The notes: generated by a model not told the origin, from the sequence alone. Positions 181-46,036 are shown, counted from the stretch's first letter. The stretch: DNA of 64,000 nt from an uncultured Gammaproteobacteria bacterium (GCA_964572175.1 CAZNEH010000001.1:9788-73787); one strand, 5' to 3'. Translations and numbers: made by a program.

Positions 181-256
181 GCCGTTGTAGCTCAGTTGGT
201 AGAGCACACGCATGGTAAGCGTGAGGTCTGCGGTTCAATCCCGCACAACGGCTCCA
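181..256 (+). tRNA. tRNA-Thr (anticodon GGU), intact, element-borne
   Basis: Cloverleaf: acceptor GCCGTTG/CAACGGC, D-arm GCTCAGTTGGTAGAGC, anticodon stem CACGC/GCGTG with loop ATGGTAA (anticodon GGT), T-arm TCTGCGGTTCAATCCCGCA, then discriminator T and encoded CCA. Confidence 0.85.
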
Positions 257-293
257 ACTAACCAGAGCATTCATACTTCCACATAAAACAAGT

Positions 294-1196: not shown

Positions 1197-1235
1197 TATT
1201 GCCAATTTAGTTATATAAGGATATATTATCTTTAT

Positions 1236-2384
1236 ATGCAACAAGAAAAGTATGATGAAAGTGTAGTTAAAAACCAACATTATATACCAGTTGGTTTATT
1301 AAAAAATTTTATTAATTCAGATAATAAAATATTTGAAGCATTATTAAGTGTTCCTAAAATTTATCCCTCAACACCAGAGAAATCAATGTCTGCAAGATTC
1401 ATTTATGAGGATGATCATCTTGATTTAAATGCAGTAGAAAAATATTTTTCGAATATCGATTCAGAAATTGCACCTAAGGTTAAAGATGTTATAGAAGCTA
1501 TAGAAAAGTATAAAAAAAATCAGGTAGAATTTTCATATATACAAGAATTATTTGAAAAACTATTATCTATTTTTGTCGTGTTTTATTATCGTAGCGGAGC
1601 GTTACTAACTGAATTTTCAAGCATAGATTCAAAACATAAAATACCTTTATTAACAAAAAAAATTCATAATCAAAGATACATAAGTTTATTGTCGCAAACT
1701 ATAAAAGAATGTTATAAATTTGCTATTATTGAAAGTGATGAAAACTTCTTAATTAGCGATCAGTTTATTTCTACGGCTGCCTTAAAAATAAAAACTCAAT
1801 TCGCCAATATTTCTAATCGTCATATAGGAATAAAAGAAACTTTAATTTTGATACCAATATCCTCAAAGTATTATGCTGCGTATTGGCATTCTGATAGCTC
1901 ATCACTTTTATCCGAATCGGGCATAAATAAATTAGATGAATCACAAATTCATGAATTTAATGCTGTAATTATTAATAACTCTTATTTAAAATGTGTTGGT
2001 CAAAATGAAAATGATTTAAAAAAAGTTATAGATCGATACAAAATGGAGTTTCCTTCACAAGTATTTATTGGACATAGAGGTGGGGGCAGCTCAGGTTATA
2101 TTAGAAAAAAAGAAATATTTTTTTCAGAAAAAGAGAAAGAAGCATACGAATTTTTAATTCACCCCTCACAAAACATTAACGAATTTTTAAAGGCGAAATC
2201 TAATGATAAATGCCCATGTGGTAAAGAGATAAAATTTAAAAAATGTCATAGAGATATTGTTTCAAGAATAAAAATTCCTATACAAAGTTTTAAGCAGGGC
2301 GTTGATCCAACAGCATATAGAATGCCAAATGTTTCTGCTGTAGAGTTGCCAATAGATGAGTGGGGTCCTTATGCTGGAAATTAA
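1236..2384 (+). CDS. DUF4238-like protein with C-terminal SEC-C-type zinc-binding motif
   Basis: N-terminal HYIPVGLLKNF resembles the DUF4238 HY[IV]PQ..L.NF signature. C-terminus CPCGKEIKFKKCH resembles the SEC-C CPCGSGKK(Y/F)KKCC motif. Confidence 0.5.
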   Translation: MQQEKYDESVVKNQHYIPVGLLKNFINSDNKIFEALLSVPKIYPSTPEKSMSARFIYEDDHLDLNAVEKYFSNIDSEIAPKVKDVIEAIEKYKKNQVEFSYIQELFEKLLSIFVVFYYRSGALLTEFSSIDSKHKIPLLTKKIHNQRYISLLSQTIKECYKFAIIESDENFLISDQFISTAALKIKTQFANISNRHIGIKETLILIPISSKYYAAYWHSDSSSLLSESGINKLDESQIHEFNAVIINNSYLKCVGQNENDLKKVIDRYKMEFPSQVFIGHRGGGSSGYIRKKEIFFSEKEKEAYEFLIHPSQNINEFLKAKSNDKCPCGKEIKFKKCHRDIVSRIKIPIQSFKQGVDPTAYRMPNVSAVELPIDEWGPYAGN

Positions 2385-2393
2385 TATAAATAT

Positions 2394-3101
2394 ATGAATA
2401 TATTAACATTACATGAGAAACGTGAAACACTAAAGGGAACTAAAATTATTAGACTTCTAAAGCACTTAGCTGTAACTCACTATTCTTTTAGGGTTAATTA
2501 TAATGAATTATCAAAACTAATAAATATATTTGAGAAAGATGATGAAATAATATATTTAAAAAATAGAGAAAAAATAGATCGATTACTATATGAATTTTCT
2601 CGTTTATTATTAAATTATATAAGTTCAGTATCGACTTTTGTTGATCACGTTAGACGAGTTAGACATAAATTAAATAATGATAAAATTGATAGGCAGTTTA
2701 AAAAAGAATTAGATAATATATCAAAAGACGAGAATATAATTTTTTTAAAGGATTTACGTAATTACACAATACATGAAAAGTTGCCAGAAGTGGCAGCTAA
2801 TTTTACTCTTAAAAATCAAGTAAATGGTCAAAATAATAATCAGGAATTAGGCATAGTTAAGGAGGCTATACTTGAGTCGACTTATTGGACAAGAGGGTCT
2901 AAAGATTTTTTGTCAAAACAAGCAAAAATGATTCCAATAAAAAAAATATTAAATAGTCATTATCAAGTATTTAATGATTTTCAAGAAAAATTTTATAAAT
3001 TAGTTACAGAAGAATATAAAAATGAAATACAGGATTTAATCGAAGTTGAAAGACAGATGAATAAATGGATGAATAAAAAACAACCAAAAGAGGATAATTA
3101 A
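2394..3101 (+). CDS. hypothetical protein (island cargo)
   Basis: Long ORF in AT-rich coding context with no recognisable motif. Confidence 0.45.
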   Translation: MNILTLHEKRETLKGTKIIRLLKHLAVTHYSFRVNYNELSKLINIFEKDDEIIYLKNREKIDRLLYEFSRLLLNYISSVSTFVDHVRRVRHKLNNDKIDRQFKKELDNISKDENIIFLKDLRNYTIHEKLPEVAANFTLKNQVNGQNNNQELGIVKEAILESTYWTRGSKDFLSKQAKMIPIKKILNSHYQVFNDFQEKFYKLVTEEYKNEIQDLIEVERQMNKWMNKKQPKEDN

Positions 3102-3127
3102 TTCTATTTACCTCATTAGTTTAATTT

Positions 3128-3685
3128 TTAATTTTGAAAAGTTAAGATTAATTTGTTGAGAATAGTTATTAATTCTTCTTTTGCTGGCTCACCATTTAAG
3201 TTTGATATCTCTCCACTATAATACTTATCTTCGTATTTAAAATCAAAAGCAAGTGAAGAATGAGCATTTGTAAGCATAGTTCCATTTAGTTCGTAGTCTT
3301 CTTCGTAGCCAATTTGAACTTCAATGTTATTAATAGTTTTAGTAGATTTTTCCAATGGATAAGTTTCAGCATGTATATCAAGATTTTCATTGCTACTAGT
3401 TAACGCTACAGAGAAATCACTATTACCGGCTGGGCTATAAGTATAAATTCCCGCTTGAGAACTTTTTAAAGTAAAACCAGATAATTTATTTAAATTAACA
3501 CCTTGCTCTACTTCTTCATGGTTTACATTTGAAGTTTGCGAACTAGTTTTATTAGTATTTCCATCTTTTTCATCATCCTTAGGAGTTAACATTAAAATTA
3601 CAACTCCCAAGATAATAATTAGTAAAATAGCGATACCAATTTTTTCAGAAGCAATTAATTTTGGCTTCTTTTTTTCTTCTTTCAT
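3128..3685 (-). CDS. hypothetical membrane-anchored/secreted protein
   Basis: N-terminal hydrophobic helix IGIAILLIIILGVVILML follows a basic N-terminus. Ser/Thr/Asn-rich ectodomain. Confidence 0.5.
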   Translation of the reverse strand: MKEEKKKPKLIASEKIGIAILLIIILGVVILMLTPKDDEKDGNTNKTSSQTSNVNHEEVEQGVNLNKLSGFTLKSSQAGIYTYSPAGNSDFSVALTSSNENLDIHAETYPLEKSTKTINNIEVQIGYEEDYELNGTMLTNAHSSLAFDFKYEDKYYSGEISNLNGEPAKEELITILNKLILTFQN

Positions 3686-3730
3686 TTTGATTGTTCATTA
3701 ATTATTATTTTCTGCCAACCAAAAAAGGCG

Positions 3731-3854
3731 ACAGGATTAGTTGGCACTACGTAATAGTTCCCAAAGGAATTCTTACGCTCCTGCCGCCATCTCTATTCGT
3801 AAGAATAAGAGATAACGACTATGAGTCGTCCTTTGGGTTTAATTACGTAGTGCC
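3731..3854. repeat. long imperfect inverted repeat / branched stem-loop (~125 nt)
   Basis: Arms TGGCACTACGTAAT...ATTACGTAGTGCCA, CCCAAAGGA...TCCTTTGGG and CTTACG...CGTAAG are nested. An internal ACGAC-tatga-GTCGT side hairpin is also present. Confidence 0.6.
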
Positions 3855-3991
3855 ATTTACTATTATAGCAGAAAAGTAAGTAAAGTTAAGTATTTTATCT
3901 ATCTGGCATTATTAGAAGTAAATTTTTCAATTGAATATTATATAATTAATATAGAGGGAAAAAGCATTTTTTTACATATTTTTACACTTTT

Positions 3992-4387
3992 ATGAACGAT
4001 ATTGAGCAAAAAGCCTGTGAATTAAAATACTCGGGCATAAAATATAAGAAAATGTCTGAATTATTGGATGTTAATTACGATACTTTAGTTAGCTGGTTTA
4101 GAAAAGATGGGAAGATATATCAAGATTATCAGGAATATGCCATAGAAACGAATAGGCAAGCTAAATTAAGGGCTATTAATTTACTGACTAATAATGTCGA
4201 AAGAGCAATTGAAGTGCTAGTTAATGAAATGCATAATAGCGATTCTTCACAGGCAAAAATCAAAGCAGCGTGCGAGATACTAAATAGAGTTATTAAAAAT
4301 AATGAAACGCAGGAAAATGAAGAAACTATGACATGGGAGGATTATGTAACATTAAGGGAAAAAGAGATGGGGAATAACGGTAAGTAA
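3992..4387 (+). CDS. small HTH-type DNA-binding protein (putative regulator / terminase-small-like)
   Basis: KYSGIKYKKMSELLDVNYDTLVSWFRK has a helix-turn-helix character. Located within the island. Confidence 0.4.
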   Translation: MNDIEQKACELKYSGIKYKKMSELLDVNYDTLVSWFRKDGKIYQDYQEYAIETNRQAKLRAINLLTNNVERAIEVLVNEMHNSDSSQAKIKAACEILNRVIKNNETQENEETMTWEDYVTLREKEMGNNGK

Positions 4388-4672
4388 ATTTTTAAAGCTT
4401 AAATGCTACCATTATAGTAGAGGGGAAAACGCTAAAATATTAGCAAAAAAATACACTTATAGCGGCAGTGTTTAAACAACCGCTCCGAATACTGGTCTAA
4501 TGGAGAAAAAATAAAAGACCAACTATATAGATGAGGTAGCCCAGCAAGACTTGAGCACAGAGGCCTCTAGAATAAACAATCTGCTGTACCCCAAGGCGAC
4601 AAATAATTCTTTTTTAAGAGTTGTTAGTCTATTTGTCCGGGGGGAGTAATAATACATTATAATATATAATTT

Positions 4673-4834
4673 ATGTCTAAAAGAAAGAATCAATTTAGAA
4701 AACCTAAATTAATACAATATAGATCAGTTTGGTTAACTCAAAAGGGGTATGAATTATTAAGGTTAGCAAAAAAGGAAGAGAAAAAATCTATGATGGCAAT
4801 TGTTAATGAATTAATTAAGGAAAAATATAAATAG
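4673..4834 (+). CDS. ribbon-helix-helix (CopG/Arc-like) small protein, candidate excisionase/regulator (53 aa, not in ORF track)
   Basis: ATG at 4673 after a TATAAT at 4660. Translation MSKRKNQFRKPKLIQYRSVWLTQKGYELLRLAKKEEKKSMMAIVNELIKEKYK has a beta-strand then two helices. It ends 3 nt before the second integrase. Confidence 0.55.
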   Translation: MSKRKNQFRKPKLIQYRSVWLTQKGYELLRLAKKEEKKSMMAIVNELIKEKYK

Positions 4835-4837
4835 TAG

Positions 4838-5743
4838 ATGGAATTAAGAGAAGCTTTTAAACAATTTATTGTTGAAAGTCAAAATGGACGCTTTGCTTAT
4901 AATTCTGATAAAACTATTTTGAAACATAAAAATGTTTTTGAGCTTTTTGTAAAATGGATTCCGACAGAAAGAGTTCAAGATTTAAATGAAGAGCTGTTAT
5001 GGAGATATTTTAATAAAGGAGAAACTACTCGAGACTGGAAACCATCAACCGTGATAACTAATCGTACTAGTCTTTCAAGATTTTTAGATTGGTGCGTGAT
5101 TAATAAATTATTAAAAGAAAATCCTATAAAAAAAATTCCACGACCAAGATTAATTAAAAACACTCCCGACTATTATAGCGAGGAGGAAATTGACAAGATT
5201 TTGTATACTGTCAACAAATTATTTAAACGACAATTAACTAGAGCGAGAAACATGGCAATGATAGGGATTATGTTATTGGCAGGCCTTAGAAAGGGTGAAT
5301 TATTAAAACTAAAAATAACTGATGTTGATTTCAGTAATAAAGTTATAAGAATTAGAGCAGAAAATGCAAAAAATAGGAAGCCTAGGTCTCTGAATATAAG
5401 TCATAAATTAGAAGAACTACTAAAGGTTTATATTTCGTTGAGAGAGAAAAAAGGGATCAAAGCTTATAGCTTATGGGTATCATCAAATAATCATGCTCCA
5501 CTAACTGAAAATGGTTATAATCATATATTAGAAACGTTATCAGAGGGGGTTGGATTTAAGGTTAAATCTCATAAGTGTAGGCATACCTTTGCAACTTACG
5601 CATATAAAGGATGTAAAGATATTATGGCAGTAAAAGATGCCTTAGGACATGCTGATTTAAAAACCACGCTAGTTTATGCTACTCCCTTAGCTGAATCTAC
5701 TAAGTTAACTATAGAAGTTAATCCGATAAATGATTTGTTTTAA
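4838..5743 (+). CDS. tyrosine site-specific recombinase / integrase (second copy)
   Basis: HKCRHTFATYAY...GHADLKTTLVYA catalytic signature. Shares N-terminal blocks with the 294..1196 product. Confidence 0.85.
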   Translation: MELREAFKQFIVESQNGRFAYNSDKTILKHKNVFELFVKWIPTERVQDLNEELLWRYFNKGETTRDWKPSTVITNRTSLSRFLDWCVINKLLKENPIKKIPRPRLIKNTPDYYSEEEIDKILYTVNKLFKRQLTRARNMAMIGIMLLAGLRKGELLKLKITDVDFSNKVIRIRAENAKNRKPRSLNISHKLEELLKVYISLREKKGIKAYSLWVSSNNHAPLTENGYNHILETLSEGVGFKVKSHKCRHTFATYAYKGCKDIMAVKDALGHADLKTTLVYATPLAESTKLTIEVNPINDLF

Positions 5744-5789
5744 TTAAGTTTTTTTAGTATTATATTATTATTAACTAATAATAATATAA

Positions 5790-7055
5790 ATGAAAATATT
5801 TAATAAACACTTACATGACATTACTTATGATGAAATAATATCTTTTTGCAATGAAGGGCATATAGAAAGTTTATATTTAGATTACAAAGAAGATGTGAGT
5901 AGATCAAATTCAGTTGCTAAAACTTCAGCGGCAATGGCAAATTCTTTTGGCGGAATAATAATAATAGGTGTTGCTGATGACAATAATTATCCTAAATTAC
6001 CTGTAAAGGGTCTAGATAAATTAACAGAGGAGCAAATTACTCAAATAATTTCAGATAACACATTTCCACTAATTACACCAGAAATAAAAGTATATAAAAA
6101 AGCTAATCGATATTTAGGTATAGTTAGAGTTAAGCCATCGCAATCTACTCCAATTTTTTTTACTAAAGATAATACTATTCCTGTTAGAGTTAATAATATT
6201 ACAAAAAAATTTGAAGATAATGCAGATTTAAAACAGTTAGATTGGTTATGGAATAATAGAAAAAAATCTATAGAACTTTATGAAAATTGTTTATCATTTG
6301 CCAGGGATACTTTCGAAAAACAACGAAGTAATTTACATGGATTGGAATCTTTAATTGAAGCAAAAAAAGATCCATATTCTCCCCGCATGGTTAACTCTAA
6401 ACGCTTGTTAAGAGATCCGCATTATTTTCCAAATAGAATCGAAATATTTTCTCGACCTATTTATCCTGATATTACCCCCTTGAAAAATCCGAAAGAATTA
6501 AATGATATTTTTCCGAAAATTAATGTAAATGTAGATGAAAATTGCGGAGAGTTTCCAAGAAATATTCACAAAAGACGACGTATTTCCGGTGGTAGTATTA
6601 TTCAAGAATTAAAATCTAGAGGTTTAATTTATACCGAAATTAATCAATATGGATTATATTATCATAATGAAAAAATAATTATGCAAGATTATGATTTAAT
6701 GATTGATGAACATTATAACATTGACCATTTAACAAGCGAAGCTATAGCAGTATTAAAATGGCCAGTATTAAAAGGAGTGTTTATTTCCTTTTTAGAGTCT
6801 TTAAAACTATTTTATAAAGAAATTGAATATTATGGATATATTGAAATTGGTATAAAGCTTTTCTCTGTAAATACTATGCAATTAATTAAGGAGCAAATAG
6901 AAACTGAATTATATGATTCTCCTTTAGGCGCTTACTCAGTTGATGATTATATAAATTGGGATAGTGGAATTATCAATGTTTCAGAAATTGATAATAATTT
7001 AATAAATGATCTCGAAGAATACATTGATGATTTATTCGATTATAAAAAAAGATAA
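5790..7055 (+). CDS. AlbA_2 (Schlafen-like / divergent AAA_4) DNA-binding domain protein
   Basis: ESLYLDYKED...AAMANSFGGIIIIGVADD matches the AlbA_2 E..lEfK...AfaNt.GG.iiiGv.d signature. Confidence 0.6.
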   Translation: MKIFNKHLHDITYDEIISFCNEGHIESLYLDYKEDVSRSNSVAKTSAAMANSFGGIIIIGVADDNNYPKLPVKGLDKLTEEQITQIISDNTFPLITPEIKVYKKANRYLGIVRVKPSQSTPIFFTKDNTIPVRVNNITKKFEDNADLKQLDWLWNNRKKSIELYENCLSFARDTFEKQRSNLHGLESLIEAKKDPYSPRMVNSKRLLRDPHYFPNRIEIFSRPIYPDITPLKNPKELNDIFPKINVNVDENCGEFPRNIHKRRRISGGSIIQELKSRGLIYTEINQYGLYYHNEKIIMQDYDLMIDEHYNIDHLTSEAIAVLKWPVLKGVFISFLESLKLFYKEIEYYGYIEIGIKLFSVNTMQLIKEQIETELYDSPLGAYSVDDYINWDSGIINVSEIDNNLINDLEEYIDDLFDYKKR

Positions 7056-7207
7056 TTATTACTTTCTTTTTATAATATTATTTGTTATTATTTAAGTATT
7101 AATTATTAAGTGGAAGTACCCAGCGGTTAATACTGTTTATACTCACTGAAACAAGTAGTTTAAATCTAACCTTAGCCGAAAAACAAGGATTTTAAAACCT
7201 CGACCTA

Positions 7208-7254
7208 CCATGGTAAGGGAAAGGTCCGCGGTTCGAATCCGCGCAACGGCTCCA
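7208..7254 (+). tRNA. 3' fragment of the disrupted tRNA-Thr(GGU) (anticodon loop, 3' anticodon stem, variable loop, T-arm, acceptor 3' strand, CCA)
   Basis: CCATGGTAAGG-GAA-AGGTC-CGCGGTTCGAATCCGCG-CAACGGC-T-CCA. Perfectly complementary to the 29..68 5' half. Confidence 0.7.
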
Positions 7255-7326
7255 ATAAGCTACCCGAAAGGGTGGTTTTTTTTAACATTGACAAAAGCCA
7301 TAAAAATAGGGTATATTAATAGTACA

Positions 7327-9345
7327 ATGAAACATTTCAAAATATTATTTATCATCACTTGTTTGGCCAGTATTGCGTTTTTTAGCCAGGCAGCCTTAGC
7401 TCAGAATAGAGTTAAGAATTTTCGGGTTACAAATGAAACTTCAGAAACTATTACCCTTAAATGGAAGGCAAATCCTAGAGCTGTAAAATATAAGATTATA
7501 GTAAAAGAACAGGGAGGAGAGTTAGTTAAAAAAGTTTATACTACTAAAAATAGAAAAAAGATAAAGAATTTAAAACCAGATACAGTTTATAAATTTAAAA
7601 TTCGGGCTAAATTCAAAAGAAGATATAGTAAGCATTATAAAATTATTAGAGTTCGAACTGATTCTGCTACGCCAGCTCCGCAGGAACCAGAACCAATTCC
7701 TGAGCCAGAACCTGTTCCAACTCCCGAACCTGAGCCAGAGCCTACTCCCGAGCCTGAACCAACACCAGAGCCAGTTGATAACGACGGCGATGGTTACACT
7801 GAAGAAGAGGACTGTAATGACAATGATGCCACTGTTTATATAAATCAAACATATTACCAAGACTTAGATAGTGATGGGCTAGGTTCAGATACATCTACAT
7901 CAATATGTTCTTCTGTTACTCCAGAAGGTTATGTAACTAATAGTAATGATTCAAACGATAACGACTACGACAACGATGGCGTAGAAACTGGCATTGATTG
8001 TAATGATACCAATTCCGAATTAACCGTACATAATACTTATTATTTAGATAGCGACAACGACAGTTACGGTACTTCTGAAGGAGTTCAATTCTGTGCTAAT
8101 GAACCACCGGCTGGATATGTAACTAATAACACTGATTGTGATGATAGTGATTTAAATGTAAATACAGGCCAAGCATATTACCAAGATTTAGATGGTGATG
8201 GACTAGGTTCAGATATATTTACTTCTGTTTGCTCAAGTACTCCACCGACTGGTTATGTAACAAATAGTAATGATGTAAATGATAACGATTACGACAACGA
8301 CGGCGTAGAAACTGGCACTGATTGTAATGACACAGATGTCGATTTAGCTTACACAAATATTTATTATTTAGACACAGATAGTGATAGTTATGGCGTATCA
8401 ACTGGTACAGAATTATGTGCCACTGAAACACCAGCGGGTTATGTTACTAATGGTGATGACTTAGATGATTATGATCCTGAGATTGGTGATACTGAGCCAG
8501 AACCTGGATTGGATATACCATTTGGTTTTTGGGGCTTGAATGGATACACAGATTCTGATGGACTTGCTTATGTGCAAGATAATTTTGGGGTAAATGTTTA
8601 CCAAGTTTTATCTGATGGGCCAAATTATAATTTAAACACTTTGTTACCTAGGGTTGAAGCCGCGGGAATGAAGGTTAACTTGAATATCACTGGTAATTAT
8701 TATGACTTTAGAGATAGAGATAATAATTTTGATATAAATTTATGGAAACAGTCTTTAGATGATTATTTTAGTGATTCAGATACGGCTGTAGAGACTCAAG
8801 AGTATATTGATAACGGAACGATTGTTGGAATTATGATTTTAGATGATATTTATAATTATAGTTATTCTTATGGAGGAGTTAATCCTACTTCAGCAGAATT
8901 AGAAGAAATGGCTTGTGATTTAAAAGGATATGTTGATGTAACAACTTGGATTAGGGAAGATGTTAGTTATTTAGATCCTTATCAATTTAGCTGTTTAGAT
9001 GCCGCTGGTTTACAATATTCAGCTGTTAAAGGATCAGTGGAAGATTATATTTCAGTACAAGGGCAATTAGCAAGTGATTTAAATCTTGATGTGGTGGCTG
9101 GTTTAAATATTTGTGATGGCGGTGATGGTTCTAGCGGGCAAATTGGTTGGAGAAGTGGTAAGTATACGATGACTCCAGAAGAAATTACTACTTATGGTGA
9201 AGCGATGCTGGGAATGGACAATGTGATTATGTTTTTAATGTGGGAGTATGATGCTAATGAAGTGTGGGCAGATGGGGTAACAGTTGGAGCTGATTATTTT
9301 AATCAAGACGAGTATAAAGAAGCAATATATAATTTAGGTCAATAA
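7327..9345 (+). CDS. large secreted surface protein: signal peptide, Lys-rich FN3-like domain, Pro-Glu-Pro linker, four MopE-like Cys/Asp metal-binding repeats, C-terminal domain
   Basis: The true start is the in-frame ATG at 7327, not 7210 which overlaps the tRNA fragment. A TTGACA-N18-TATATT promoter lies upstream. Signal peptide MKHFKILFIITCLASIAFFSQAALA. Linker PEPEPVPTPEPEPEPTPEPEPTPEP. Repeats of type CNDND..TYYQDLD.DGLGSD. Confidence 0.75.
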   Translation: MKHFKILFIITCLASIAFFSQAALAQNRVKNFRVTNETSETITLKWKANPRAVKYKIIVKEQGGELVKKVYTTKNRKKIKNLKPDTVYKFKIRAKFKRRYSKHYKIIRVRTDSATPAPQEPEPIPEPEPVPTPEPEPEPTPEPEPTPEPVDNDGDGYTEEEDCNDNDATVYINQTYYQDLDSDGLGSDTSTSICSSVTPEGYVTNSNDSNDNDYDNDGVETGIDCNDTNSELTVHNTYYLDSDNDSYGTSEGVQFCANEPPAGYVTNNTDCDDSDLNVNTGQAYYQDLDGDGLGSDIFTSVCSSTPPTGYVTNSNDVNDNDYDNDGVETGTDCNDTDVDLAYTNIYYLDTDSDSYGVSTGTELCATETPAGYVTNGDDLDDYDPEIGDTEPEPGLDIPFGFWGLNGYTDSDGLAYVQDNFGVNVYQVLSDGPNYNLNTLLPRVEAAGMKVNLNITGNYYDFRDRDNNFDINLWKQSLDDYFSDSDTAVETQEYIDNGTIVGIMILDDIYNYSYSYGGVNPTSAELEEMACDLKGYVDVTTWIREDVSYLDPYQFSCLDAAGLQYSAVKGSVEDYISVQGQLASDLNLDVVAGLNICDGGDGSSGQIGWRSGKYTMTPEEITTYGEAMLGMDNVIMFLMWEYDANEVWADGVTVGADYFNQDEYKEAIYNLGQ

Positions 9346-9721: not shown

Positions 9722-10789
9722 ATGAGAATTAAATATTACAAAAATATGGAAGGAAGTAGATCAAGAAGGGTGGGGTTAAGAGATGCGGTTAAGAAAACAG
9801 CCGAGGTCGGAGTTAGGTCTATTGTGGCTAAGTTAGAGGGTAAAAGTACTTTTGGGGTGGGCTCTAATTCTATTTTAGCGGCCTGTGCCATGGCTTATCC
9901 AGAAAGATGTGATATTAAACAAGAGGTAGAGCGAGATGCTTTGCCGGTTTTAATGAGATATGTGATGGGTTATAACGATTGGGTAGATGTGGGGGAGGAT
10001 CTTCCAGAAGGAAATGAGTTTAGAGATTATTTTGAAAGTGAATTAGAAAAACATAAAGCAGCTTGGTATGCATATTTGGATCAAATGCCAAATAGAGAAG
10101 AGGCTGATGCCTTAAGACTTCGAACAGACCAGATTATGGGTGATTTAGCGACCATTGAAGGAGCAGCTAAGTGTGTAGAAGGGGCGGATAATCCTTATCG
10201 AGAGGAATTAGACTTAAAAGAATTGGCTAATGGAGTGGACGCTATTTTAGGAATTATTGCTTGTGTGGATCATAATATGTTTGCCGATAGGATGGATACT
10301 GATCATGATACTTCGACTATAGAAGGGGTGAAAGCAAAATATGCCTGGTTAGTTGATTTGGATTATGAAGAGGTGGAAGGCAATGAGTTAACAGAGGATG
10401 AAAAAAGAGCTAGAATGCTTTACTTGGCTTCTATGGCTGCGCAAATGCAAAATGATATTAGTATTTATGATTATGACAAGGCTTTAGGAGTTGTGAAGCC
10501 AATAAACGTGTTAACTGACGTAGTTGGTCTTTCTAAAGAGGACGCAATTGAGAGAACAGAAAGAGAAGAGGCAAGGTATATTAGATTAGCGAAGAAATAT
10601 GGGTTCAAAAGAAGAGTGATTAAAATAGGGGATATTGGTTATAGGGCTGGTAATGATTGGTTGCATGGAATAGTAGACTTGGCTCGGAGCCAAGACCCAG
10701 ATAGTGTTATGAGAAAGTTGATTGCGGCTGGTTTTAAGAAAACTGGTTGTGTGAGGCAGGAGATGATGGTGAATAGAGATGATGAATAA
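9722..10789 (+). CDS. hypothetical protein
   Basis: An extended -10 (TGCTATAAT) lies directly upstream of the ATG at 9722. No recognisable domain. Confidence 0.5.
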   Translation: MRIKYYKNMEGSRSRRVGLRDAVKKTAEVGVRSIVAKLEGKSTFGVGSNSILAACAMAYPERCDIKQEVERDALPVLMRYVMGYNDWVDVGEDLPEGNEFRDYFESELEKHKAAWYAYLDQMPNREEADALRLRTDQIMGDLATIEGAAKCVEGADNPYREELDLKELANGVDAILGIIACVDHNMFADRMDTDHDTSTIEGVKAKYAWLVDLDYEEVEGNELTEDEKRARMLYLASMAAQMQNDISIYDYDKALGVVKPINVLTDVVGLSKEDAIERTEREEARYIRLAKKYGFKRRVIKIGDIGYRAGNDWLHGIVDLARSQDPDSVMRKLIAAGFKKTGCVRQEMMVNRDDE

Positions 10790-10869
10790 TATTTCTTAAT
10801 ATAAAAAAACTCACCGCGCGACTCGCTTGATGACGAATCGCTTGGTGAGGGGTCCCGGGGCTTGGATCC

Positions 10870-11076
10870 CTAGGCGGTCATGGGGAGGTCAGAGTTCAGG
10901 AAGGCCTGGGAGGTCGCCATGAAGGCTTCCATTTCCCCGGAGGCGGCGATGGCACCTAGGTCGACCTGGTGAAGCAGGGCGCTGCCCTCTTGTTTGTTGT
11001 AGACCAGGTTCGGTTGTCCGTCGAGGGTGAGGATGCCCACAGTTCCTTGCATTTCGAACTTCCACTTGTCGTTCAT
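10870..11076 (-). CDS. GC-rich small protein (68 aa) in a solitary cassette
   Basis: Minus-strand promoter TTGACA (11148..11143) - N17 - TAAGGT (11125..11120). The ORF has high GC (~60%, by eye) in a ~35% GC genome. Downstream minus-strand terminator hairpin CTCACC...GGTGAG plus T7 at ~10800..10850. Confidence 0.5.
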   Translation of the reverse strand: MNDKWKFEMQGTVGILTLDGQPNLVYNKQEGSALLHQVDLGAIAASGEMEAFMATSQAFLNSDLPMTA

Positions 11077-11389
11077 GTCGGCTCACTTTCAGGGCTTTGC
11101 CCTTTTGAGATTCACCCCAACCTTACCCATTTATAATGAAATTGTCAACCTATCTACGGTAGACAGGCTTTGTTTGGGGGTATGGAGGGTTTTGGAGGTG
11201 GGGGAGGGGGATTTGGAAGTGGCTCAACAAAAAAGCCGACAGTTTTTGTCGGTGTTTGTGGAGTTGTTGAGGAGTGAAATTGTTTGATATTTGCTAAGCT
11301 TGATTTAAAGTCTTATTAAGTGTTATAATATATTTACTTGTGGATAAACATAGATATTTAATAAATTCATTATTATTTAAATAAATACA

Positions 11390-11599: not shown

Positions 11600-11913
11600 A
11601 AGTTTTTTGCTTATCCGGTTCTTAGAATTGTCCGGCTAAATGGTAAATACCTTGAATTCTGAGAATTCTGAAAGGATAAAGCAAAAACCACCGAGCGCAG
11701 ACGCCTCACCGTAATCTGTTTACACAGTTTGCGATGAGTGTTCGTAGCACTCAGCAAACCCTAGGGTTGGCAAAGCGACTACGCTCGATGGTTAATCTCT
11801 TTGTAGTAATTTGAGATTAATTTCTGCGCCCCGTCTACGAAACGGGAAAATTGTAATGAACTCTTCTATATTTTATAATTATAGCTCTTTTTTGTCAAGA
11901 GGTAAATTACTAA

Positions 11914-25860: not shown

Positions 25861-25909
25861 GTTTTTATTTTAGGGCGTTATTCTATTATAGCAAAAAAAA
25901 GAGCCCTCG

Positions 25910-26166
25910 TCAAGATGAATCGAGGAGGGCGAGAGGATCGTCCTGGCGGACGTGTTGTGATCGCTTGAGGGTCGGCAGCCAGTTGGGTACCTCGCGAAGC
26001 TGGGTGATGGTTCGTTGCCCAGAGATGCCGTGGTAGCCTTGGAGTGGTCCAGAGCGAATCTTGGTCCACCGGGGATGGTTGGTGAAGACCCACCAGCCAC
26101 GTTCGTTTTTGACTCGCAAGAAGATGATGGTGTGTCCGTCTTTGCGAGAGACGTAGGATTCGAACA
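25910..26166 (-). CDS. GC-rich small protein (85 aa) in a solitary cassette
   Basis: Minus-strand promoter TTGACT (26223..26218) - N17 - TATAAG (26200..26195), GGAG ribosome-binding site, ATG at 26166 (MFESYVSRKDGHTIIFLRVKNERGWWVF...). High local GC. The 123-aa track ORF is trimmed to this start. Confidence 0.5.
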
Positions 26167-26241
26167 TGAGTTTCTCCGGGTTGAGGTGTAGTTTTCTTAT
26201 ATCATTGATTTTAACTTGAGTCAAGGGTATAATAAAGACAT

Positions 26242-27843: not shown

Positions 27844-27889
27844 TGTTATAAGTATAGCCTAATTCTTGAATAAAAAAAAGCAGCCCCCA

Positions 27890-28111
27890 CTAGTGGCAGA
27901 TCTCGGAGATCGTTTCGCCACAGCGAGGGCAGTAGAAGGGATAGATGCCAGACGGACGCCAGGCCTTGGTGACACTTCCACGAAGAGCAGTGATGCATTG
28001 GCGGCATCCACGAACCTTGACTTGAAGGACTTGCTTGTCATGGAGCTTGGTTCCGCAGCCGATGCAGAACTTGTTGTCGTTCTGAGAGCTGAATTGGCAG
28101 CATGGCTTCAT
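27890..28111 (-). CDS. GC-rich Cys-rich zinc-ribbon small protein (73 aa) in a solitary cassette
   Basis: Minus-strand TTGACT (28171..28166) - N16 - TAAACT. Ribosome-binding site GGGGGA, then ATG at 28111. MKPCCQFSSQNDNKFCIGCGTKLHDKQ...CRQC...CPRCGETISEICH has multiple CxxC pairs. Confidence 0.5.
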   Translation of the reverse strand: MKPCCQFSSQNDNKFCIGCGTKLHDKQVLQVKVRGCRQCITALRGSVTKAWRPSGIYPFYCPRCGETISEICH

Positions 28112-28242
28112 GAGTTCCCCCTGAAAGAGCTTGAGTTGTACCAAGTTTACTAGAAATAGAGATAAAGTCAAATTGTGGATAAGATTTTGGGGATATGGTA
28201 TACTAAAAGAGTATTAATTTAAAATAATTAACTTAAAAAATT

Positions 28243-39551: not shown

Positions 39552-40100
39552 ATGGACCAAAAATTGGTGTTAGCTGCTTTGAAAAACCCTGATGATTATA
39601 CCCAAATAGTTCAAAAGTACGAAAAGCCTATTTTAAGCTATATTATGCGGATTTCGGGTGTTAGCTACCAAGAGGCCGAAGACATTGGGCAGGAAATATT
39701 TTTAAAAGCATATACTAATTTAAATGATTACGACCAGCGGAGGAAGTTTTCGACTTGGCTTTTTTCGATTGCTCATAACGAGACTATTTCTCATTGGCGA
39801 AAGAATAAAAAGCGTTTAAAAGACTTGGACATAGAAGATGATGTGCTGCAGAATATTTTGCCAGATGAATTTGACATGGTTAAAAATATTGATGATAAAG
39901 TTTTAAAACAAGAAATAAAAGAAGCTATTAAAAAGTTGGATATTAAATATCGGGAAGTTTTGCAGTTGAAGTATTATGATGATTTATCTTATGAAGAGAT
40001 TTCTGATATTATTAAAAAGCCAGTTAATACTGTAGGGACGTTGTTGAATCGAGCCAAGAAGAAGTTAGAAAAGTTATTAGCCAATAAAAAATATGACTAA
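39552..40100 (+). CDS. ECF-type RNA polymerase sigma factor (sigma-70 regions 2 and 4)
   Basis: Region 2 blocks (FLKAYTNLNDYD...FSTWLFSIAHNETISHWR) and region 4 HTH (SYEEISDIIKKPVNTVGTLLNRAKKKL). Confidence 0.85.
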   Translation: MDQKLVLAALKNPDDYTQIVQKYEKPILSYIMRISGVSYQEAEDIGQEIFLKAYTNLNDYDQRRKFSTWLFSIAHNETISHWRKNKKRLKDLDIEDDVLQNILPDEFDMVKNIDDKVLKQEIKEAIKKLDIKYREVLQLKYYDDLSYEEISDIIKKPVNTVGTLLNRAKKKLEKLLANKKYD

Positions 40101-42191: not shown

Positions 42192-42220
42192 TTGACAGGG
42201 GTAGTTTATTTAGGTAAGAT
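42192..42220 (+). promoter_or_regulatory. sigma-70-type promoter TTGACA-N17-TAAGAT (first cassette)
   Basis: TTGACA 42192..42197, GGGG-containing spacer, TAAGAT 42215..42220. AGGAGG ribosome-binding site at 42241. Confidence 0.6.
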
Positions 42221-42252
42221 ATTTACGAATCCACAAGCAAGAGGAGGAAATC

Positions 42253-42507
42253 TTGCAAGGACAGACACAGAGAGACAAGCATCCGGCCAAGCATGGCTGG
42301 GTCAAGGTCAAGAAGCTGGTGAACAACTCTCGTGGCCGACGGCGCCCGAAGCGCGTCTGGGTCCAGAGCGGCGATGCTCCTGGTAAGAAGGAGGAGCGCA
42401 TCAGGGCCAAGAAGAAGCGCGAGGCTCAGCAGAGAGCGGCAGCTCAAGAGGCCCGGAGGAAAAGGGATGAAGAGGAGCGCCGAGCAGCACGCCGCCGCTG
42501 GTGGTAG
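42253..42507 (+). CDS. highly basic Lys/Arg-rich small protein (84 aa), TTG start
   Basis: AGGAGG lies 6 nt upstream of the TTG start. KRK/RRR-rich sequence. GC-rich codons. Confidence 0.45.
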   Translation: MQGQTQRDKHPAKHGWVKVKKLVNNSRGRRRPKRVWVQSGDAPGKKEERIRAKKKREAQQRAAAQEARRKRDEEERRAARRRWW

Positions 42508-42533
42508 CTGGTTTTCAGCGACGAGTGTGAATA

Positions 42534-42578
42534 CCCCCCCCTGCAGCTCTACGGAGTTGACAGGGGTTATTTTTTTAT
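42534..42578 (+). terminator. terminator hairpin CCCCTG-N17-CAGGGG plus T-run, with the next promoter's -35 (TTGACA) embedded in the 3' arm
   Basis: CCCCCCCTG cagctctacggagttga CAGGGG TTATTTTTTT, followed by TATACT 18 nt after TTGACA. Confidence 0.55.
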
Positions 42579-42624
42579 TCTATACTTACATTACAATTTT
42601 TCAAACCGACGAAGGAAGATTCCC

Positions 42625-42834
42625 ATGAAGATGCTCAAGTGCGAGAACTGTGGATACCCTATGCCAGTATCTGGCAAAATCAACGAAGATGATGGCCTGC
42701 GGTGCCCGATCTGCAACGGGCTGATGAAGAAGCCTGGGGCCGGGGAGCCGACGACCGAGGTGGACATCACCGAACGTCCCTTCATTCCGCCGCGGCCACT
42801 GCCGCCGCCGACCGAGATCCCGGCCTACGCTTAG
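42625..42834 (+). CDS. zinc-ribbon small protein (69 aa)
   Basis: CENC...CPIC pairs. Ribosome-binding site GAAGGAAG. Pro-rich C-terminus. Confidence 0.5.
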   Translation: MKMLKCENCGYPMPVSGKINEDDGLRCPICNGLMKKPGAGEPTTEVDITERPFIPPRPLPPPTEIPAYA

Positions 42835-42961
42835 GCCAAGGACAACTTCGCGGGCATTAGCCCCACGACCCTAGGATGAGATTCATCTGATGGGTCGCTT
42901 TTTTTGACTAAAACAGGGTGGGGTGGTAGGCTAAAGTTAGCGTAAACCAAGGGAGGTACGC

Positions 42962-43348
42962 ATGTGTGAGAAAAGGTATTTCTTCGATGATCGTCAGTCC
43001 ACCCAGTTCAAGTGCGTCTGCGGGGGATCGGTCGTGGTTCTGGAGCATGATGCTCAGGCCGAGAAGATCGGGTGTCAGTCCTGCGGCAAGACGGCTCGGG
43101 TTCGTCCGAGTGCTTCTCCAGACACTCTGATCGAGTGCCAGCCGGAGAAGTGGTCGGGGACGAACTTCTACCTCGAGAACCATGGGCCCGACAAGGGCTG
43201 GACTCACTGCGGCCAGCCCATGGTGATCATCGGTCGTCTGGATGCTCACCTGTGGCCAGTTGGCTGCCAGGTCTGTGGAGCCATGGGCCATGTCGGACAC
43301 AACTCCACGCCCGAGGACTGGCCGCCCGACGGCAGCTGCTCTGGCTAG
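42962..43348 (+). CDS. Cys-rich small protein, family A member 1 (128 aa)
   Basis: Ribosome-binding site AAGGGAGG. Shares HCG(Q/R)(P/T)MVIIG...GCQVCG...H.G.N...W.P with the 45593..45934 product. Confidence 0.55.
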   Translation: MCEKRYFFDDRQSTQFKCVCGGSVVVLEHDAQAEKIGCQSCGKTARVRPSASPDTLIECQPEKWSGTNFYLENHGPDKGWTHCGQPMVIIGRLDAHLWPVGCQVCGAMGHVGHNSTPEDWPPDGSCSG

Positions 43349-43370
43349 AGCACACAACGACTTGTTCGAT

Positions 43371-43404
43371 GACCTATATTGGGGGATATAGGTCATATTT
43401 TTTT
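43371..43404 (+). terminator. rho-independent terminator (GACCTATAT family)
   Basis: GACCTATAT-tggggg-ATATAGGTC plus T-run. Confidence 0.7.
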
Positions 43405-43486
43405 CCGCCTTCGCAGACTGCGGCGGACAAGTTTGACTCTAATGGGGTGGGATGGTAGGGTTAAATTAACAAGGGAGGATTTAGAA

Positions 43487-43882
43487 ATGTCTAAGAGAAG
43501 TGAACCTTTTGACGCTTGCTTGGCTGGCTGGATGGAGTTGGAAGAGATGATGCTTCGGGATCGGCCCCCAGTTCGAGCGAGGAAGCTCAAGAAAGGGATG
43601 CTGAAGCGCTGGTCCTGGGTGACCAATTCCCGCGGGAAAAAGGTTCGGCGTAAGACCTGGGGTAAGCCTGGTCCGCCGCCGAAGCCTCGTTCGGGTAATC
43701 TAGTGGCCTTCAACGCTTCGGATCAGTGGCGGCTGCACCGGGCGGCTGGAGTTAAGAGCCGGAGGGACTGGGATAGGCTGACCACTTGCCAACAGGACGA
43801 GGTTTTTATGAAGGCCCTGGAAGATGGTTTGGAGCCCTTTAGCCTGGTCGATGGCTATCGGCACTTCTGCCGTGGCGACTAA
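43487..43882 (+). CDS. basic small protein (131 aa), start trimmed to the ATG with a ribosome-binding site
   Basis: AGGGAGG lies 7 nt upstream of the ATG at 43487. Promoter TTGACT-N17-TAGGGT at 43433..43461. Confidence 0.5.
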   Translation: MSKRSEPFDACLAGWMELEEMMLRDRPPVRARKLKKGMLKRWSWVTNSRGKKVRRKTWGKPGPPPKPRSGNLVAFNASDQWRLHRAAGVKSRRDWDRLTTCQQDEVFMKALEDGLEPFSLVDGYRHFCRGD

Positions 43883-43991
43883 CCCCTGTTCAACCCGAGT
43901 GGTTGACAGGGGGTATTTTTATTTGGGTTGACCCGGGGAGGGTTTTGTGCTAAGGTTAGGGCGCCTAATTCACAAAGGGAGGGCACACAAA

Positions 43992-44462
43992 ATGCTCGGT
44001 TTGATTTCCAGAGGCTGGCATATGTTCATGGGTCTGTGGGTGGAAGATATCGAGACGGTTCGCGGTGTTCCGCTGAAGCCTGGAGTGGTTCACGACCTCT
44101 TCATCTGCGGTGGCTGGCCGTTCAAGGCCGAGATCGTGCCGGAGTACGTGGCGATCAGGCCCAGGGGCGAGACCTGGCCGCTGGACTACGGTATGATGTC
44201 CAAGAGCTTCCGGCACCGTGACTCCAAGGCGCTGCAGGCCTACAACTGGTCCATGGTGCGTCGGACCGATGGCGGTCCCATGTTCGAGTGCGACCACAAC
44301 ATCTTCGTCCTCCGCGTCCACAAGGGTGAACTTCCTCGACATGATCACTTCATCGCACGCGAGGGGCGTGATTTCTCTGAGGCCCAGGTCTTAGAGGTCA
44401 TCGACGACGAGAAGGATCTGATCATGTGCGTCTGGATCCGCGAGGCCGGGCTCGTCGAGTAG
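43992..44462 (+). CDS. small protein, family B member 1 (156 aa)
   Basis: AGGGAGG ribosome-binding site. N-terminus MLGLISRGWHMFMGLWV is paralogous to MLSWLARPWNSFIGLWV of the 45252..45554 product. The ~70-bp promoter/5'UTR is near-identical to the one at 45182..45251. Confidence 0.55.
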   Translation: MLGLISRGWHMFMGLWVEDIETVRGVPLKPGVVHDLFICGGWPFKAEIVPEYVAIRPRGETWPLDYGMMSKSFRHRDSKALQAYNWSMVRRTDGGPMFECDHNIFVLRVHKGELPRHDHFIAREGRDFSEAQVLEVIDDEKDLIMCVWIREAGLVE

Positions 44463-44484
44463 CGGCGAAGACAACTAGTTCGAT

Positions 44485-44518
44485 GACCTATATCGGGGGG
44501 ATATAGGTCGTTTTTTTA
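44485..44518 (+). terminator. rho-independent terminator (GACCTATAT family)
   Basis: GACCTATAT-cgggggg-ATATAGGTC-G-T7. Confidence 0.7.
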
Positions 44519-44586
44519 TTGACTTAGAGTGGGGGAGATGTTAGGGTAAAAATAGTGTTCAACTTCAACCCCGAGCTCGAGGTGAG

Positions 44587-44799
44587 ATGATGAAAGGTGC
44601 TGCTCTCAGCTGTGTTCCCTGTGACTGGACGGCGACTGATGTGTCCAATGCAAGGTTCTGTCCGTTCTGTGGAGATGATCTGGAGAAGAAGGGAGTCCTG
44701 GGCAAGAAGGTTCCCTTCCGGGTGAAGCTCTTGGCCCGCGTGCCCGTGACCGCGAGGCTCAGGCGCCTGGCTTCTATCTTCGGGGAAGACAAGCGCTAG
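44587..44799 (+). CDS. zinc-ribbon small protein (70 aa)
   Basis: CVPC...CPFC pairs. Promoter TTGACT-N17-TAGGGT at 44519..44547. Confidence 0.5.
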   Translation: MMKGAALSCVPCDWTATDVSNARFCPFCGDDLEKKGVLGKKVPFRVKLLARVPVTARLRRLASIFGEDKR

Positions 44800-44927
44800 A
44801 CAGCGACGACGAGGTAAGTGTGGGCCGTGCCCGCCATAGTCCTGATTCATATCGGGACGACGGCGGGTCTATTTTTTTGACTAAAAAAACAGGGGATGTT
44901 AGAGTATTATTATCAAGGGGGAAAGAC

Positions 44928-45143
44928 ATGGATTTTAGTATTTTTCTAGTGGCAATGATCGTGGCTTCACTGGGCCTGGGTAAACACTTCGTTTTCAGGG
45001 GCGCAGAAAAAATGGATCGCTTCAAAAAGAATACGGGGCGCACCGTTACAGAGCGAGAAGAGGTACACGAGGCAGAGGGCCTTCTTCTGGCAGGGGGCAT
45101 CCTGATTTTCTTGGCGTTCAATGCCGCGATGTTCATTCTTTAG
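44928..45143 (+). CDS. small two-TM membrane protein (71 aa)
   Basis: Ribosome-binding site AAGGGGGA, ATG at 44928. Two hydrophobic helices. Promoter TTGACT-N17-TAGAGT at 44877..44905. Confidence 0.45.
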   Translation: MDFSIFLVAMIVASLGLGKHFVFRGAEKMDRFKKNTGRTVTEREEVHEAEGLLLAGGILIFLAFNAAMFIL

Positions 45144-45251
45144 CCCGCTACAGTCTTCGGACCACGGCGGGTTCTTTTTTTATTTGGGTTGACTCGGGAG
45201 GGTTTTGGTGCTAAGGTAAGGGCGCCTAATTCACAAGGGAGGGCATGTAAG

Positions 45252-45554
45252 ATGTTGTCATGGTTGGCTAGACCGTGGAATTCATTCATTGGTCTGTGGG
45301 TTCATGGTGCCCCTCAGATCGAGGATCAGCAGGTTTCCGAGCCGCTGCAGGTCGACGAGGTCGAGCTGGTGGTCGGGGAGACCTTCTTTTTCCAGAGGGA
45401 CAAGTTCTTCATCGTGATCACCTGGAGTGCTCGCAGCGCGCGGCGTCCGGTGGTCGGCGATCGGATCAAGGGATCGTCTGGGCAGGACGCGATCGTGCTG
45501 TCGACCATTCCTGGAGAGAAGAACAAGTACCTCTGCCGGATCATGATCGACTAG
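45252..45554 (+). CDS. small protein, family B member 2 (100 aa)
   Basis: AGGGAGG ribosome-binding site. Paralogue of the 43992..44462 product. Co-transcribed with the downstream family A gene, with no intervening terminator. Confidence 0.55.
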   Translation: MLSWLARPWNSFIGLWVHGAPQIEDQQVSEPLQVDEVELVVGETFFFQRDKFFIVITWSARSARRPVVGDRIKGSSGQDAIVLSTIPGEKNKYLCRIMID

Positions 45555-45592
45555 GCAGAGCAGAACTACACGAATCACACGAGGAGGTGTGC

Positions 45593-45934
45593 ATGTCGGA
45601 AGCGAGGTACCACAAGAACCACTTCGGTCTGAAGGAGGGCTTCGAGCACTGCGGCCGGACCATGGTGATCATCGGATGTGGCGATCGTCTGGAGACGCTC
45701 GGCTGCCAGGTCTGCGGTCACACGCAGCACTCTGGCATGAACACGGAAAACTGGACGCCCACGTCGACGGATGACGAGGACGACGATCCGGAGGAGGAGT
45801 CAGCGCCTCGGCCCTGGCTTCGAGATTCGGGTCCCAGCTCCTGCGAAGGGTGTACTCGTTACGGGGAGACCTGTTCCGGGTCTACCTTCGGAGAATCGTG
45901 CACCGACGCAGATGATGGACACCGTAGCTGGTGA
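45593..45934 (+). CDS. Cys-rich small protein, family A member 2 (113 aa)
   Basis: AGGAGG ribosome-binding site, ATG at 45593. Motif EHCGRTMVIIGCGDRLETLGCQVCGHTQHSGMN is paralogous to the 42962..43348 product. Confidence 0.55.
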   Translation: MSEARYHKNHFGLKEGFEHCGRTMVIIGCGDRLETLGCQVCGHTQHSGMNTENWTPTSTDDEDDDPEEESAPRPWLRDSGPSSCEGCTRYGETCSGSTFGESCTDADDGHRSW

Positions 45935-45940
45935 TTCCAT

Positions 45941-45976
45941 GACCTACACCGGGGGGATGTAGGTCGTATTTTTTTA
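45941..45976 (+). terminator. rho-independent terminator (GACCTA family)
   Basis: GACCTACA-ccgggggga-TGTAGGTC plus T-run. Confidence 0.7.
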
Positions 45977-46036
45977 TTTTGACTAATTTGGGGTGGGGTG
46001 TTAAGGTTAAATTGAAAATAGTAACTTAGAACACTT

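Follow-up and report, generated by a model that had tools for sequence, protein, structure and literature searches.

A GC-rich promoter-ORF-terminator cassette encoding a small protein of a new family in a low-GC, probably Patescibacteria chromosome

Layout of the cassette

The window analysed here is a stretch of 64,000 nt from a metagenome assembly deposited as an uncultured Gammaproteobacteria bacterium (GCA_964572175.1, CAZNEH010000001.1:9788-73787). Its guanine-plus-cytosine (GC) content is 36.6% overall. On its minus strand the window carries a GC-rich cassette in which an open reading frame (ORF) of 68 amino acids (aa) is preceded by a sigma-70-type promoter and followed by an intrinsic terminator. 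GC content reaches 0.58-0.60 over 10800-11099, compared to 0.28-0.40, or about 0.33, in both flanks (200-nt windows), and stays at or above 0.52 from 10768 to 11131 (150-nt windows). The constituents of the cassette are the following, in the direction of transcription.

10,803-11,252, minus strand: whole cassette, ~450 bases, in the order hairpin with T6, C-rich tract, stem-loop, promoter, leader, 68-aa ORF, hairpin with T7
11229..11252, minus strand: upstream hairpin CCGACA-AAAAC-TGTCGG (11252-11236), then C and T6, found by a terminator scan
11167..11228, minus strand: C-rich non-coding tract of 62 nt (TTGTTGAGCCACTTCCAAATCCCCCTCCCCCACCTCCAAAACCCTCCATACCCCCAAACAAAGC), read from the sequence
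11150..11166, minus strand: 7-bp stem-loop CUGUCUA-CCG-UAGAUAG, its end 2 nt short of the -35 hexamer, without a T-run and part of a predicted 113-nt fold
11120..11148, minus strand: sigma-70-type promoter, an exact match, with -35 TTGACA at 11148-11143, a 17-nt AT-rich spacer and -10 TAAGGT at 11125-11120
11077..11113, minus strand: putative 5′ leader of ~37 nt with a small hairpin, AGGGC-AAA-GCCCU, read from the sequence
10870..11076, minus strand: protein-coding gene of 68 aa with an ATG start (MNDKWKFEMQGTVGILTLDGQPNLVYNKQEGSALLHQVDLGAIAASGEMEAFMATSQAFLNSDLPMTA), assigned from GC periodicity, homologues and fold
10803..10849, minus strand: intrinsic terminator, a two-tier hairpin with CUCACC (10849-10844) and GGUGAG (10815-10810) around a 9-bp helix, then U7 (10809-10803)

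A first-pass annotation of this DNA had named the promoter, the ORF, the terminator and the upstream hairpin, and each of them is found where it had been placed. The TTGACA-N17-TAAGGT promoter is exact, the translated ORF has the sequence quoted, the CTCACC...GGTGAG hairpin plus T7 of the minus strand has a significant fold (z = -4.6), and the CCGACA/TGTCGG hairpin thought to isolate the cassette is present (z = -3.9) together with its T-run. The extent given for the GC-rich patch, ~430 bp, stood only in part. The GC excess is real, but the strongly GC-rich part, made of the ORF and the terminator, covers ~360 bp. The remainder of the patch, up to 11235, is the non-coding C-rich tract (G-rich on the plus strand), with a GC content of 0.45-0.49.

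The terminator and the upstream hairpin were compared with shuffled sequences. A folding energy of -29.3 kcal/mol (z = -4.59) was obtained for the 64-nt segment with the terminator, and none of 200 shuffles was equally stable. A simple terminator scan overlooked this terminator, owing to a second 9-bp helix that makes up its apical part. For the upstream hairpin, which itself resembles a terminator on the minus strand, the folding energy is -8.3 kcal/mol (z = -3.85; 0/200 shuffles equally stable). The fold of the leader is not significant (z = -1.3). The promoter is separated from the ATG by 43 nt, and the transcription start is placed near 11113 because of the position of the -10 hexamer. The Shine-Dalgarno-like sequence, GUGAG, lies 5 nt 5′ of the AUG and is weak.

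The C-rich tract is predicted to be unpaired in the fold. It shares with the rest of the window just one 12-mer, GGAGGGTTTTGG, which also occurs in the promoter spacer of array gene a8 (see below) and is at chance level (E = 2.5). On the plus strand, 11167-11228 reads as successive G-runs (GGGGGTATGGAGGGTTTTGGAGGTGGGGGAGGGGG) that could form a G-quadruplex. G-rich spacers of a similar kind are found in the promoters of the array and of the gene at 28243.

The 68-aa protein and its family

GC content at the three codon positions of the 68-aa ORF (GC1/2/3) is 0.59/0.36/0.80. The order GC3 > GC1 > GC2 holds in exactly the proposed frame, which gives the ORF a GC-rich coding signature. In 19 host genes of the window, GC3 ranges from 0.16 to 0.45 with a mean of 0.28. 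When 1.84 billion representative proteins were searched exhaustively with HMMER, four end-to-end homologues of 73-76 aa were retrieved (P0003, P0005, P0006 and P0007), with 36-43% identity and library-wide E-values of 3e-6 to 1e-4. Three proteins ranked above them (P0001, P0002 and P0004) were discarded as long repeat or low-complexity proteins.

The alignment of the five sequences (A2) contains 16 invariant columns: the initiator Met and W5, F7, M9, G11, G14, G20, V25, K28, H36, L40, E48, S56, S62, L64 and P65. The family core, W-x-F-x-M-x-G ... SK ... H-x-(I/V)-(P/D)-L ... S-x-L-P, is present over the full-length alignment. The members match the family profile with E-values of 1e-27 to 7e-31, and a profile search with the five-member alignment yielded no further ones. 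AlphaFold2, run on the same alignment, gave a model with a mean predicted local distance difference test (pLDDT) score of 91.8 and a predicted template modelling (pTM) score of 0.75. The predicted fold comprises three strands, three helices and an extended C-terminal tail that bears the conserved S-x-L-P motif.

No match to the family was found in Pfam, PHROGs, PADLOC, NCBIfam or PDB sequences, nor was there a fold match in PDB or BFVD. A word-indexed protein search with the 68-aa ORF was empty, IMG/VR and JGI metagenome scans added no family members, and tblastn and blastn against phages and plasmids gave no match. The patch has no Rfam match at gathering thresholds and nothing meaningful at E ≤ 10. 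The gene is absent from the NCBI and Logan gene records and is uncalled on the identical Logan contig.

Thus the 68-aa ORF is a genuine protein gene, not a structured RNA. The first-pass annotation had suggested codon analysis and a homology search as checks, and had named conservation of the patch as non-coding RNA, with no conservation of the ORF, as the result that would speak against a gene. The checks returned coding-type GC3 periodicity and four full-length homologues, and conservation is at the protein level, with a confident predicted fold and nothing in Rfam. The product is a soluble protein of a tiny, previously unrecognised family. It contains zero cysteines, and no signal peptide or membrane segment was seen by eye. 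As a guess only, it could be a small binding or modulator protein that targets another macromolecule, and not an enzyme. A role as DNA mimic or "acidic binder" was dropped, as the net charge varies from -5 to +1 across the family.

All four homologues are found in low-GC contigs (0.39-0.44), and each of them is GC-elevated relative to its own contig. The best-sampled locus is represented by contigs L009, L010 and L011, which come from three different sequencing runs. Here the homologue has 74 aa and a GC3 of 0.77, compared to 0.29-0.42 in the neighbouring housekeeping genes; TTGACA-N17-TAATGT and AGGAGG lie 5′ of it, and a hairpin and T-run lie 3′. In L009 it forms the second member of a pair of GC-rich cassettes (GC3 0.81 and 0.77) situated between a membrane-protein gene and rpsB. 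Positions 1-3600 of L009, as also L010 and L011, hold three GC-rich small genes, which encode a Cys-rich protein of 80 aa, a protein of 141 aa and the 74-aa homologue. Each of the two units upstream of rpsB is equipped with a TTGACA promoter and a terminator of its own. Neither the 141-aa nor the 80-aa protein gave a family match.

In L008 the homologue is flanked by two copies of a 32-nt terminator-TTGACA junction (acgtggtgtttttttgtttttatattgacaaa; locus 228-950); the repeated junction separates tandem units. In the upstream neighbour, an 83-aa protein, Pfam detects a SutA RNA-polymerase-binding domain (E = 2.9e-12). The homologue in L002 has a TTGACA promoter and GGAGG, and its GC content is 0.50 vs 0.386 for the contig. 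It belongs to an islet (1364-3638) with a Doc/Fic toxin gene split into ORFs of 70 aa and 69 aa, an excisionase-like HTH_17 protein and a DUF5680 protein; the islet adjoins an ATP-binding cassette (ABC) transporter and rpsL/rpsG. Finally, the homologue in L012 has GGAGG on its 5′ side and a hairpin plus T-run on its 3′ side, and the contig stops 22 nt upstream of the gene. Own TTGACA promoters are thus present in L002, L008 and L009, and a hairpin/T-run lies 3′ of the gene at these loci and in L012. The promoter-ORF-terminator build with elevated GC travels with the 68-aa family, and the regulatory sequences differ between loci. Between strain variants the homologue loci show 99.7-100% identity and are uninformative on presence or absence.

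Further cassettes in the window

Cassettes of this class comprise at least 12 genes at four loci in the window and occupy an estimated 8% of it. Among the 22 TTGACN-N16-18-TAnnnT sites of the window, 12 are at GC-rich cassettes, 11 of these before cassette ORFs. In addition to the cassette described above, the following were identified.

25890..26224, minus strand: second solitary cassette, with TTGACT-N17-TATAAG, an 85-aa ORFan at 25910-26167 (MFESYVSRKDGHTIIF..., GC3 0.67) and a hairpin GCCCUC..GAGGGC plus U8
27870..28171, minus strand: third solitary cassette, with TTGACT-N16-TAAACT, a 73-aa ORF at 27890-28111 (MKPCCQFSSQNDNKFCIGCG..., GC3 0.68, 9 cysteines, zinc-ribbon-like) and a weak hairpin plus U8
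42192..46007, plus strand: array of 8 transcription units with 9 ORFs (a8 and a9 bicistronic), GC 0.49-0.63

The hairpin segment of the 25.9-kb cassette folds at -16.7 kcal/mol (z = -2.5), and its hairpin and U8 are interleaved with the -35 and spacer of the downstream amidase promoter, TTGACG-N17-TGCTATAAT. At 27.9 kb the hairpin reaches just -4.5 kcal/mol and the terminator is marginal; the 73-aa ORF is weakly similar to array ORF a6. Exact look-up of ten further proteins of the window, eight of which are cassette ORFs, found only two cassette ORFs as given. When exact sequences and gene records are taken together, two of 11 cassette proteins are on record as given and two further units appear only as longer calls.

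The array promoters are of the type TTGAC(N)-N17/18-TA(A/G)(G/A)(G/A/C)T, with TATACT in a2. All eight junctions carry a stable hairpin and U-run (z = -2.2 to -4.3). The terminators abut or overlap the next -35, e.g. gggtcgcTTTTTTTGACT, and in two junctions TTGACAGGGG is the 3′ stem arm. A common terminator, GACCTATAT..GGGGATATAGGTC-T7, serves three units (~43370, 44485 and 45940). Units a5 and a8 have a promoter-leader module of ~70 nt in common, together with an N-terminus that is visibly similar by reading, a similarity that phmmer did not detect. The a3 and a9 proteins have a common C-terminal domain and no homologues outside the source organism. The last promoter copy of the array (45979-46007) would drive an AT-rich host gene at 46037-46714. 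Two kb upstream of the array, at 39552-40100 on the plus strand, lies a gene for an extracytoplasmic-function (ECF)-type sigma-70 family factor (Sigma70_r2/r4_2), followed by two small genes.

Allowing for a single mismatch at most, the motif TTGAC-N18-TAAGGT is matched 7 times in the window compared to 1.39 ± 1.1 times in shuffles, a roughly 5-fold excess that none of 100 shuffles reached. Apart from the solitary cassette itself, the six remaining matches all fall within the array at 42.19-46.01 kb. The first-pass annotation had described the solitary promoter as the same as that of the array. The hexamers are indeed identical, but the array spacers are G-rich and mostly contain an extended -10 (TGn), which is absent from the solitary promoter. 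The proposal of a dispersed cassette family likewise holds for architecture and composition, which match those of the array, recur in two more solitary cassettes and are seen again around the homologues; it does not extend to DNA or protein similarity beyond the promoter hexamers. A blastn-short comparison of the solitary cassette with the rest of the window returned only chance-level 12-13-mers.

Origin of the cassette and its relation to known systems

The neighbours of the cassettes in the window are ordinary chromosomal genes. Among them are genes for enzymes (an amidase, a DNA-alkylation repair enzyme, an FKBP isomerase and a transketolase) and others for a cold-shock protein, an ABC-2 transporter pair and fn3 surface proteins. 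Among 185,579 species representatives of GTDB, the only relative detected was a Candidatus Doudnabacteria groundwater metagenome-assembled genome (MAG), 'nzgw', through the ABC-2 permease (54% identity). Gene order around the permease is not conserved in this MAG, and a neighbouring 355-aa ORF has no relative among the GTDB representatives. From these sequence comparisons the source is probably an ultra-small bacterium of the Patescibacteria, or Candidate Phyla Radiation (CPR). Logan contigs L001 and L015 contain the region without any difference; they represent the same organism and possibly the same reads.

An integrated element occupies 181-7255 at a tRNA-Thr(GGT) gene. Its genes include two for tyrosine recombinases (294-1196 and 4838-5743), together with one for a DUF4238 protein and one for a Schlafen/AlbA_2 protein. 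At 7209-7255 the 3′ half of the tRNA is repeated over 47 nt with 83% identity, and this attR-like repeat closes the tRNA-Thr island. The tRNA fragment repeat is the cause of a spurious N-terminal extension of the ORF annotated at 7210-9345. The island ends 3.5 kb before the cassette, which therefore lies outside any recognisable prophage. The genes flanking the cassette have no significant PHROG or Pfam phage matches, and the cassette proteins have no match in 50,697 phage records or in IMG/VR.

Taken together, we consider it probable that the patch was acquired horizontally as an autonomous expression module and is lodged in an intergenic region of a low-GC chromosome, itself probably of the Patescibacteria/CPR. 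Its promoter and terminator are predicted to be active. The host RNA polymerase with its housekeeping sigma factor would start at TTGACA-N17-TAAGGT, near 11113, and synthesize a monocistronic mRNA of ~310 nt that ends at the two-tier hairpin and U7 (10849-10803). The upstream hairpin and T6 would insulate the cassette from read-through out of the neighbouring unit, that of the upstream 55-aa ORF. The mRNA would encode the soluble 68-aa protein. The module would then be one of a class of GC-rich, ORFan-carrying promoter-ORF-terminator units, which are also found around the homologues in other low-GC genomes. Such units appear to be of foreign origin and to spread via recombination at terminator/promoter junctions. 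The insertion is deduced from composition alone, and junction recombination is supported for the array only, since the solitary cassette has no similar junction copies.

Several observations weigh against this explanation. No empty site was found, nor was a relative close enough for a presence/absence comparison. No direct repeats flank the cassette, and no donor is apparent, with nothing matching in phages, plasmids or IMG/VR. Sequence-similar copies of the solitary junctions are missing elsewhere in the window. The cassette promoter and terminator are consensus matches only, its Shine-Dalgarno sequence is weak, unlike the GGAGG of the homologues, and net charge is unconserved across the family. 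Moreover, the homologues are only ~40% identical yet all GC-elevated, which could mean that selection keeps GC high. This last point underlies the main rival explanation, an unlikely one in our judgement: a native, vertically inherited gene whose high GC, especially at third positions, is kept by selection, e.g. for mRNA stability or expression level in an AT-rich cell. The divergence of the five members is old, and simple amelioration after an old transfer would have erased a contrast that each of them still displays; neither a mobility gene nor a target-site duplication adjoins the cassette. However, the family is extremely patchy, with five members among 1.84e9 representative proteins, and its members reside in unrelated contexts, next to rpsB in L009 and in the islet of the split Doc toxin and excisionase-like HTH (helix-turn-helix) gene in L002. 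The same GC anomaly also marks unrelated ORFan cassettes, both in the window and in L009, which argues for a common foreign pool rather than for gene-specific selection. Persistent GC elevation across the family fits repeated sampling from a GC-rich mobile pool, and it also fits selection for high GC.

It is rather improbable that the cassette is a phage moron proper, or all that is left of a prophage or integrative element after its decay. The architecture is that of a moron, an integrase-bearing tRNA-Thr island (~257 to 7255) is present in the same window, and the L002 homologue is found among excisionase-like and Doc-like genes. However, the island closes at its attR-like repeat well short of the cassette, and the flanking genes gave no significant phage match and the cassette proteins none at all. 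A structured non-coding RNA with a fortuitous ORF might be envisaged, as GC-rich islands in AT-rich genomes are often RNA genes and the gene is uncalled in the NCBI and Logan annotations. The in-frame GC periodicity, the full-length homologues with protein-level conservation, the pLDDT of 91.8 and the lack of any Rfam match at E ≤ 10 effectively refute this explanation, and we regard it as very improbable. Least probable of all is an assembly chimera, in which GC-rich reads of another organism would have been joined into an AT-rich contig. The metagenomic source and the abrupt switch in composition would fit such a join. Against it, the region is identical in L001 and L015 (possibly from the same reads), cassette terminators and host promoters are interleaved at the level of single bases, and the same GC contrast surrounds the homologue in contigs from three independent runs.

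If the patch is a horizontally acquired module, its nearest functional counterparts are phage morons. Morons of the HK97/HK022 type ('more DNA') possess a promoter and a terminator of their own and a deviant GC content (Cumby et al. 2012, PMC3594210). The cassette is likewise a single small gene with a sigma-70-type promoter, a factor-independent terminator and deviant GC, the last of which implies lateral acquisition. Three of the four defining features of morons are therefore found, and the fourth, residence in a phage genome between genes that adjoin one another in related phages, is not. The contrast in composition is unusually large here (GC3 of 0.80 vs 0.28), and there is also a tandem array of eight units.

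A second counterpart is the promoter-early stem-loop (PeSL), a strong sigma-70 promoter and stem-loop located beside ORFans in the hyperplastic regions of T4-type phages, where it mediates shuffling, with indels and mini-circles as products of recombination (Arbiol et al. 2010, PMC2839356; Comeau et al. 2014, PMC4122927). As in one published PeSL layout, the array and the 25.9-kb cassette have a stem-loop that overlaps the -35, with the U-run in or before the spacer, and the junction modules of the array are repeated and shuffled between units. The solitary cassette has its 7-bp stem-loop 2 nt before the -35 and the hairpin with T6 88 nt upstream, and no promoter follows its own terminator. 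The repeated motif typical of PeSLs, a substrate for homologous recombination, is present within the array and absent from the solitary cassette, whose promoter and terminator sequences are unique. Moreover, the setting is cellular, with GC-rich units in an AT-rich genome, instead of a T4-type phage. The cassette thus seems moron-like in its working, yet by these comparisons it would be neither a phage moron nor a PeSL in the strict sense.

Integron cassettes are normally promoterless and attC-ended, and lie beside intI with a common Pc promoter. The array resembles them in that small, mostly ORFan genes of deviant composition are arranged head-to-tail in one orientation. It differs in that each unit has its own promoter and hairpin/T-run; for attC the assessment was by eye alone. 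The scanned genes flanking the cassette loci included no integrase, and the only integrases seen are those linked to the tRNA-Thr gene, at least 3.5 kb away. Islands, transferred genes and prophages have been reported in groundwater Patescibacteria, where horizontal transfer accounts for up to 13% of genome length (PMC12455944). This is probably the same kind of organism, but the main text of that study makes no mention of promoters, and sub-kilobase promoter-ORF-terminator cassettes are not among what it reports.

What looks like a compositional blip, a few hundred bases long, in the genome of a candidate-phyla organism thus corresponds to a functional-looking gene of a new family, with a confident predicted fold that has no known relative, and standard annotation had passed it over. 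We tentatively propose, as a possibility only, that CPR-type bacteria keep a chromosomal pool of GC-rich ORFan mini-genes, each a promoter-ORF-terminator unit, that move and stack through recombination at composite terminator/promoter junctions, with GC-rich donors such as host organisms or a virus or plasmid lineage. The process would parallel, in cells, the PeSL shuffling of T4-type phages and phage morons. Such a pool would be largely invisible in current annotations, as most of its genes escape gene callers adjusted to an AT-rich host. If the observation is general, it would point to a hidden accessory gene pool in Patescibacteria and to a simple vehicle for gene flow into them. As Patescibacteria rely on host interactions, small binding proteins are plausible effectors. 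The cassettes may also provide compact promoter and terminator parts for organisms with few genetic tools.

A further structured region lies upstream of the cassette on the minus strand, at 11600-11898. It begins with a promoter, TTGACA-N17-TAAAAT (11898-11870), followed by an untranslated stretch of 266 nt that has no Rfam match and is a candidate structured small RNA (sRNA) or attenuator-type leader. This stretch folds at -90.5 kcal/mol vs -58.6 kcal/mol in shuffles (z = -6.5). The fold ends in a long helix and then UUUUUGCUUU near 11683, ahead of the basic 55-aa ORF.

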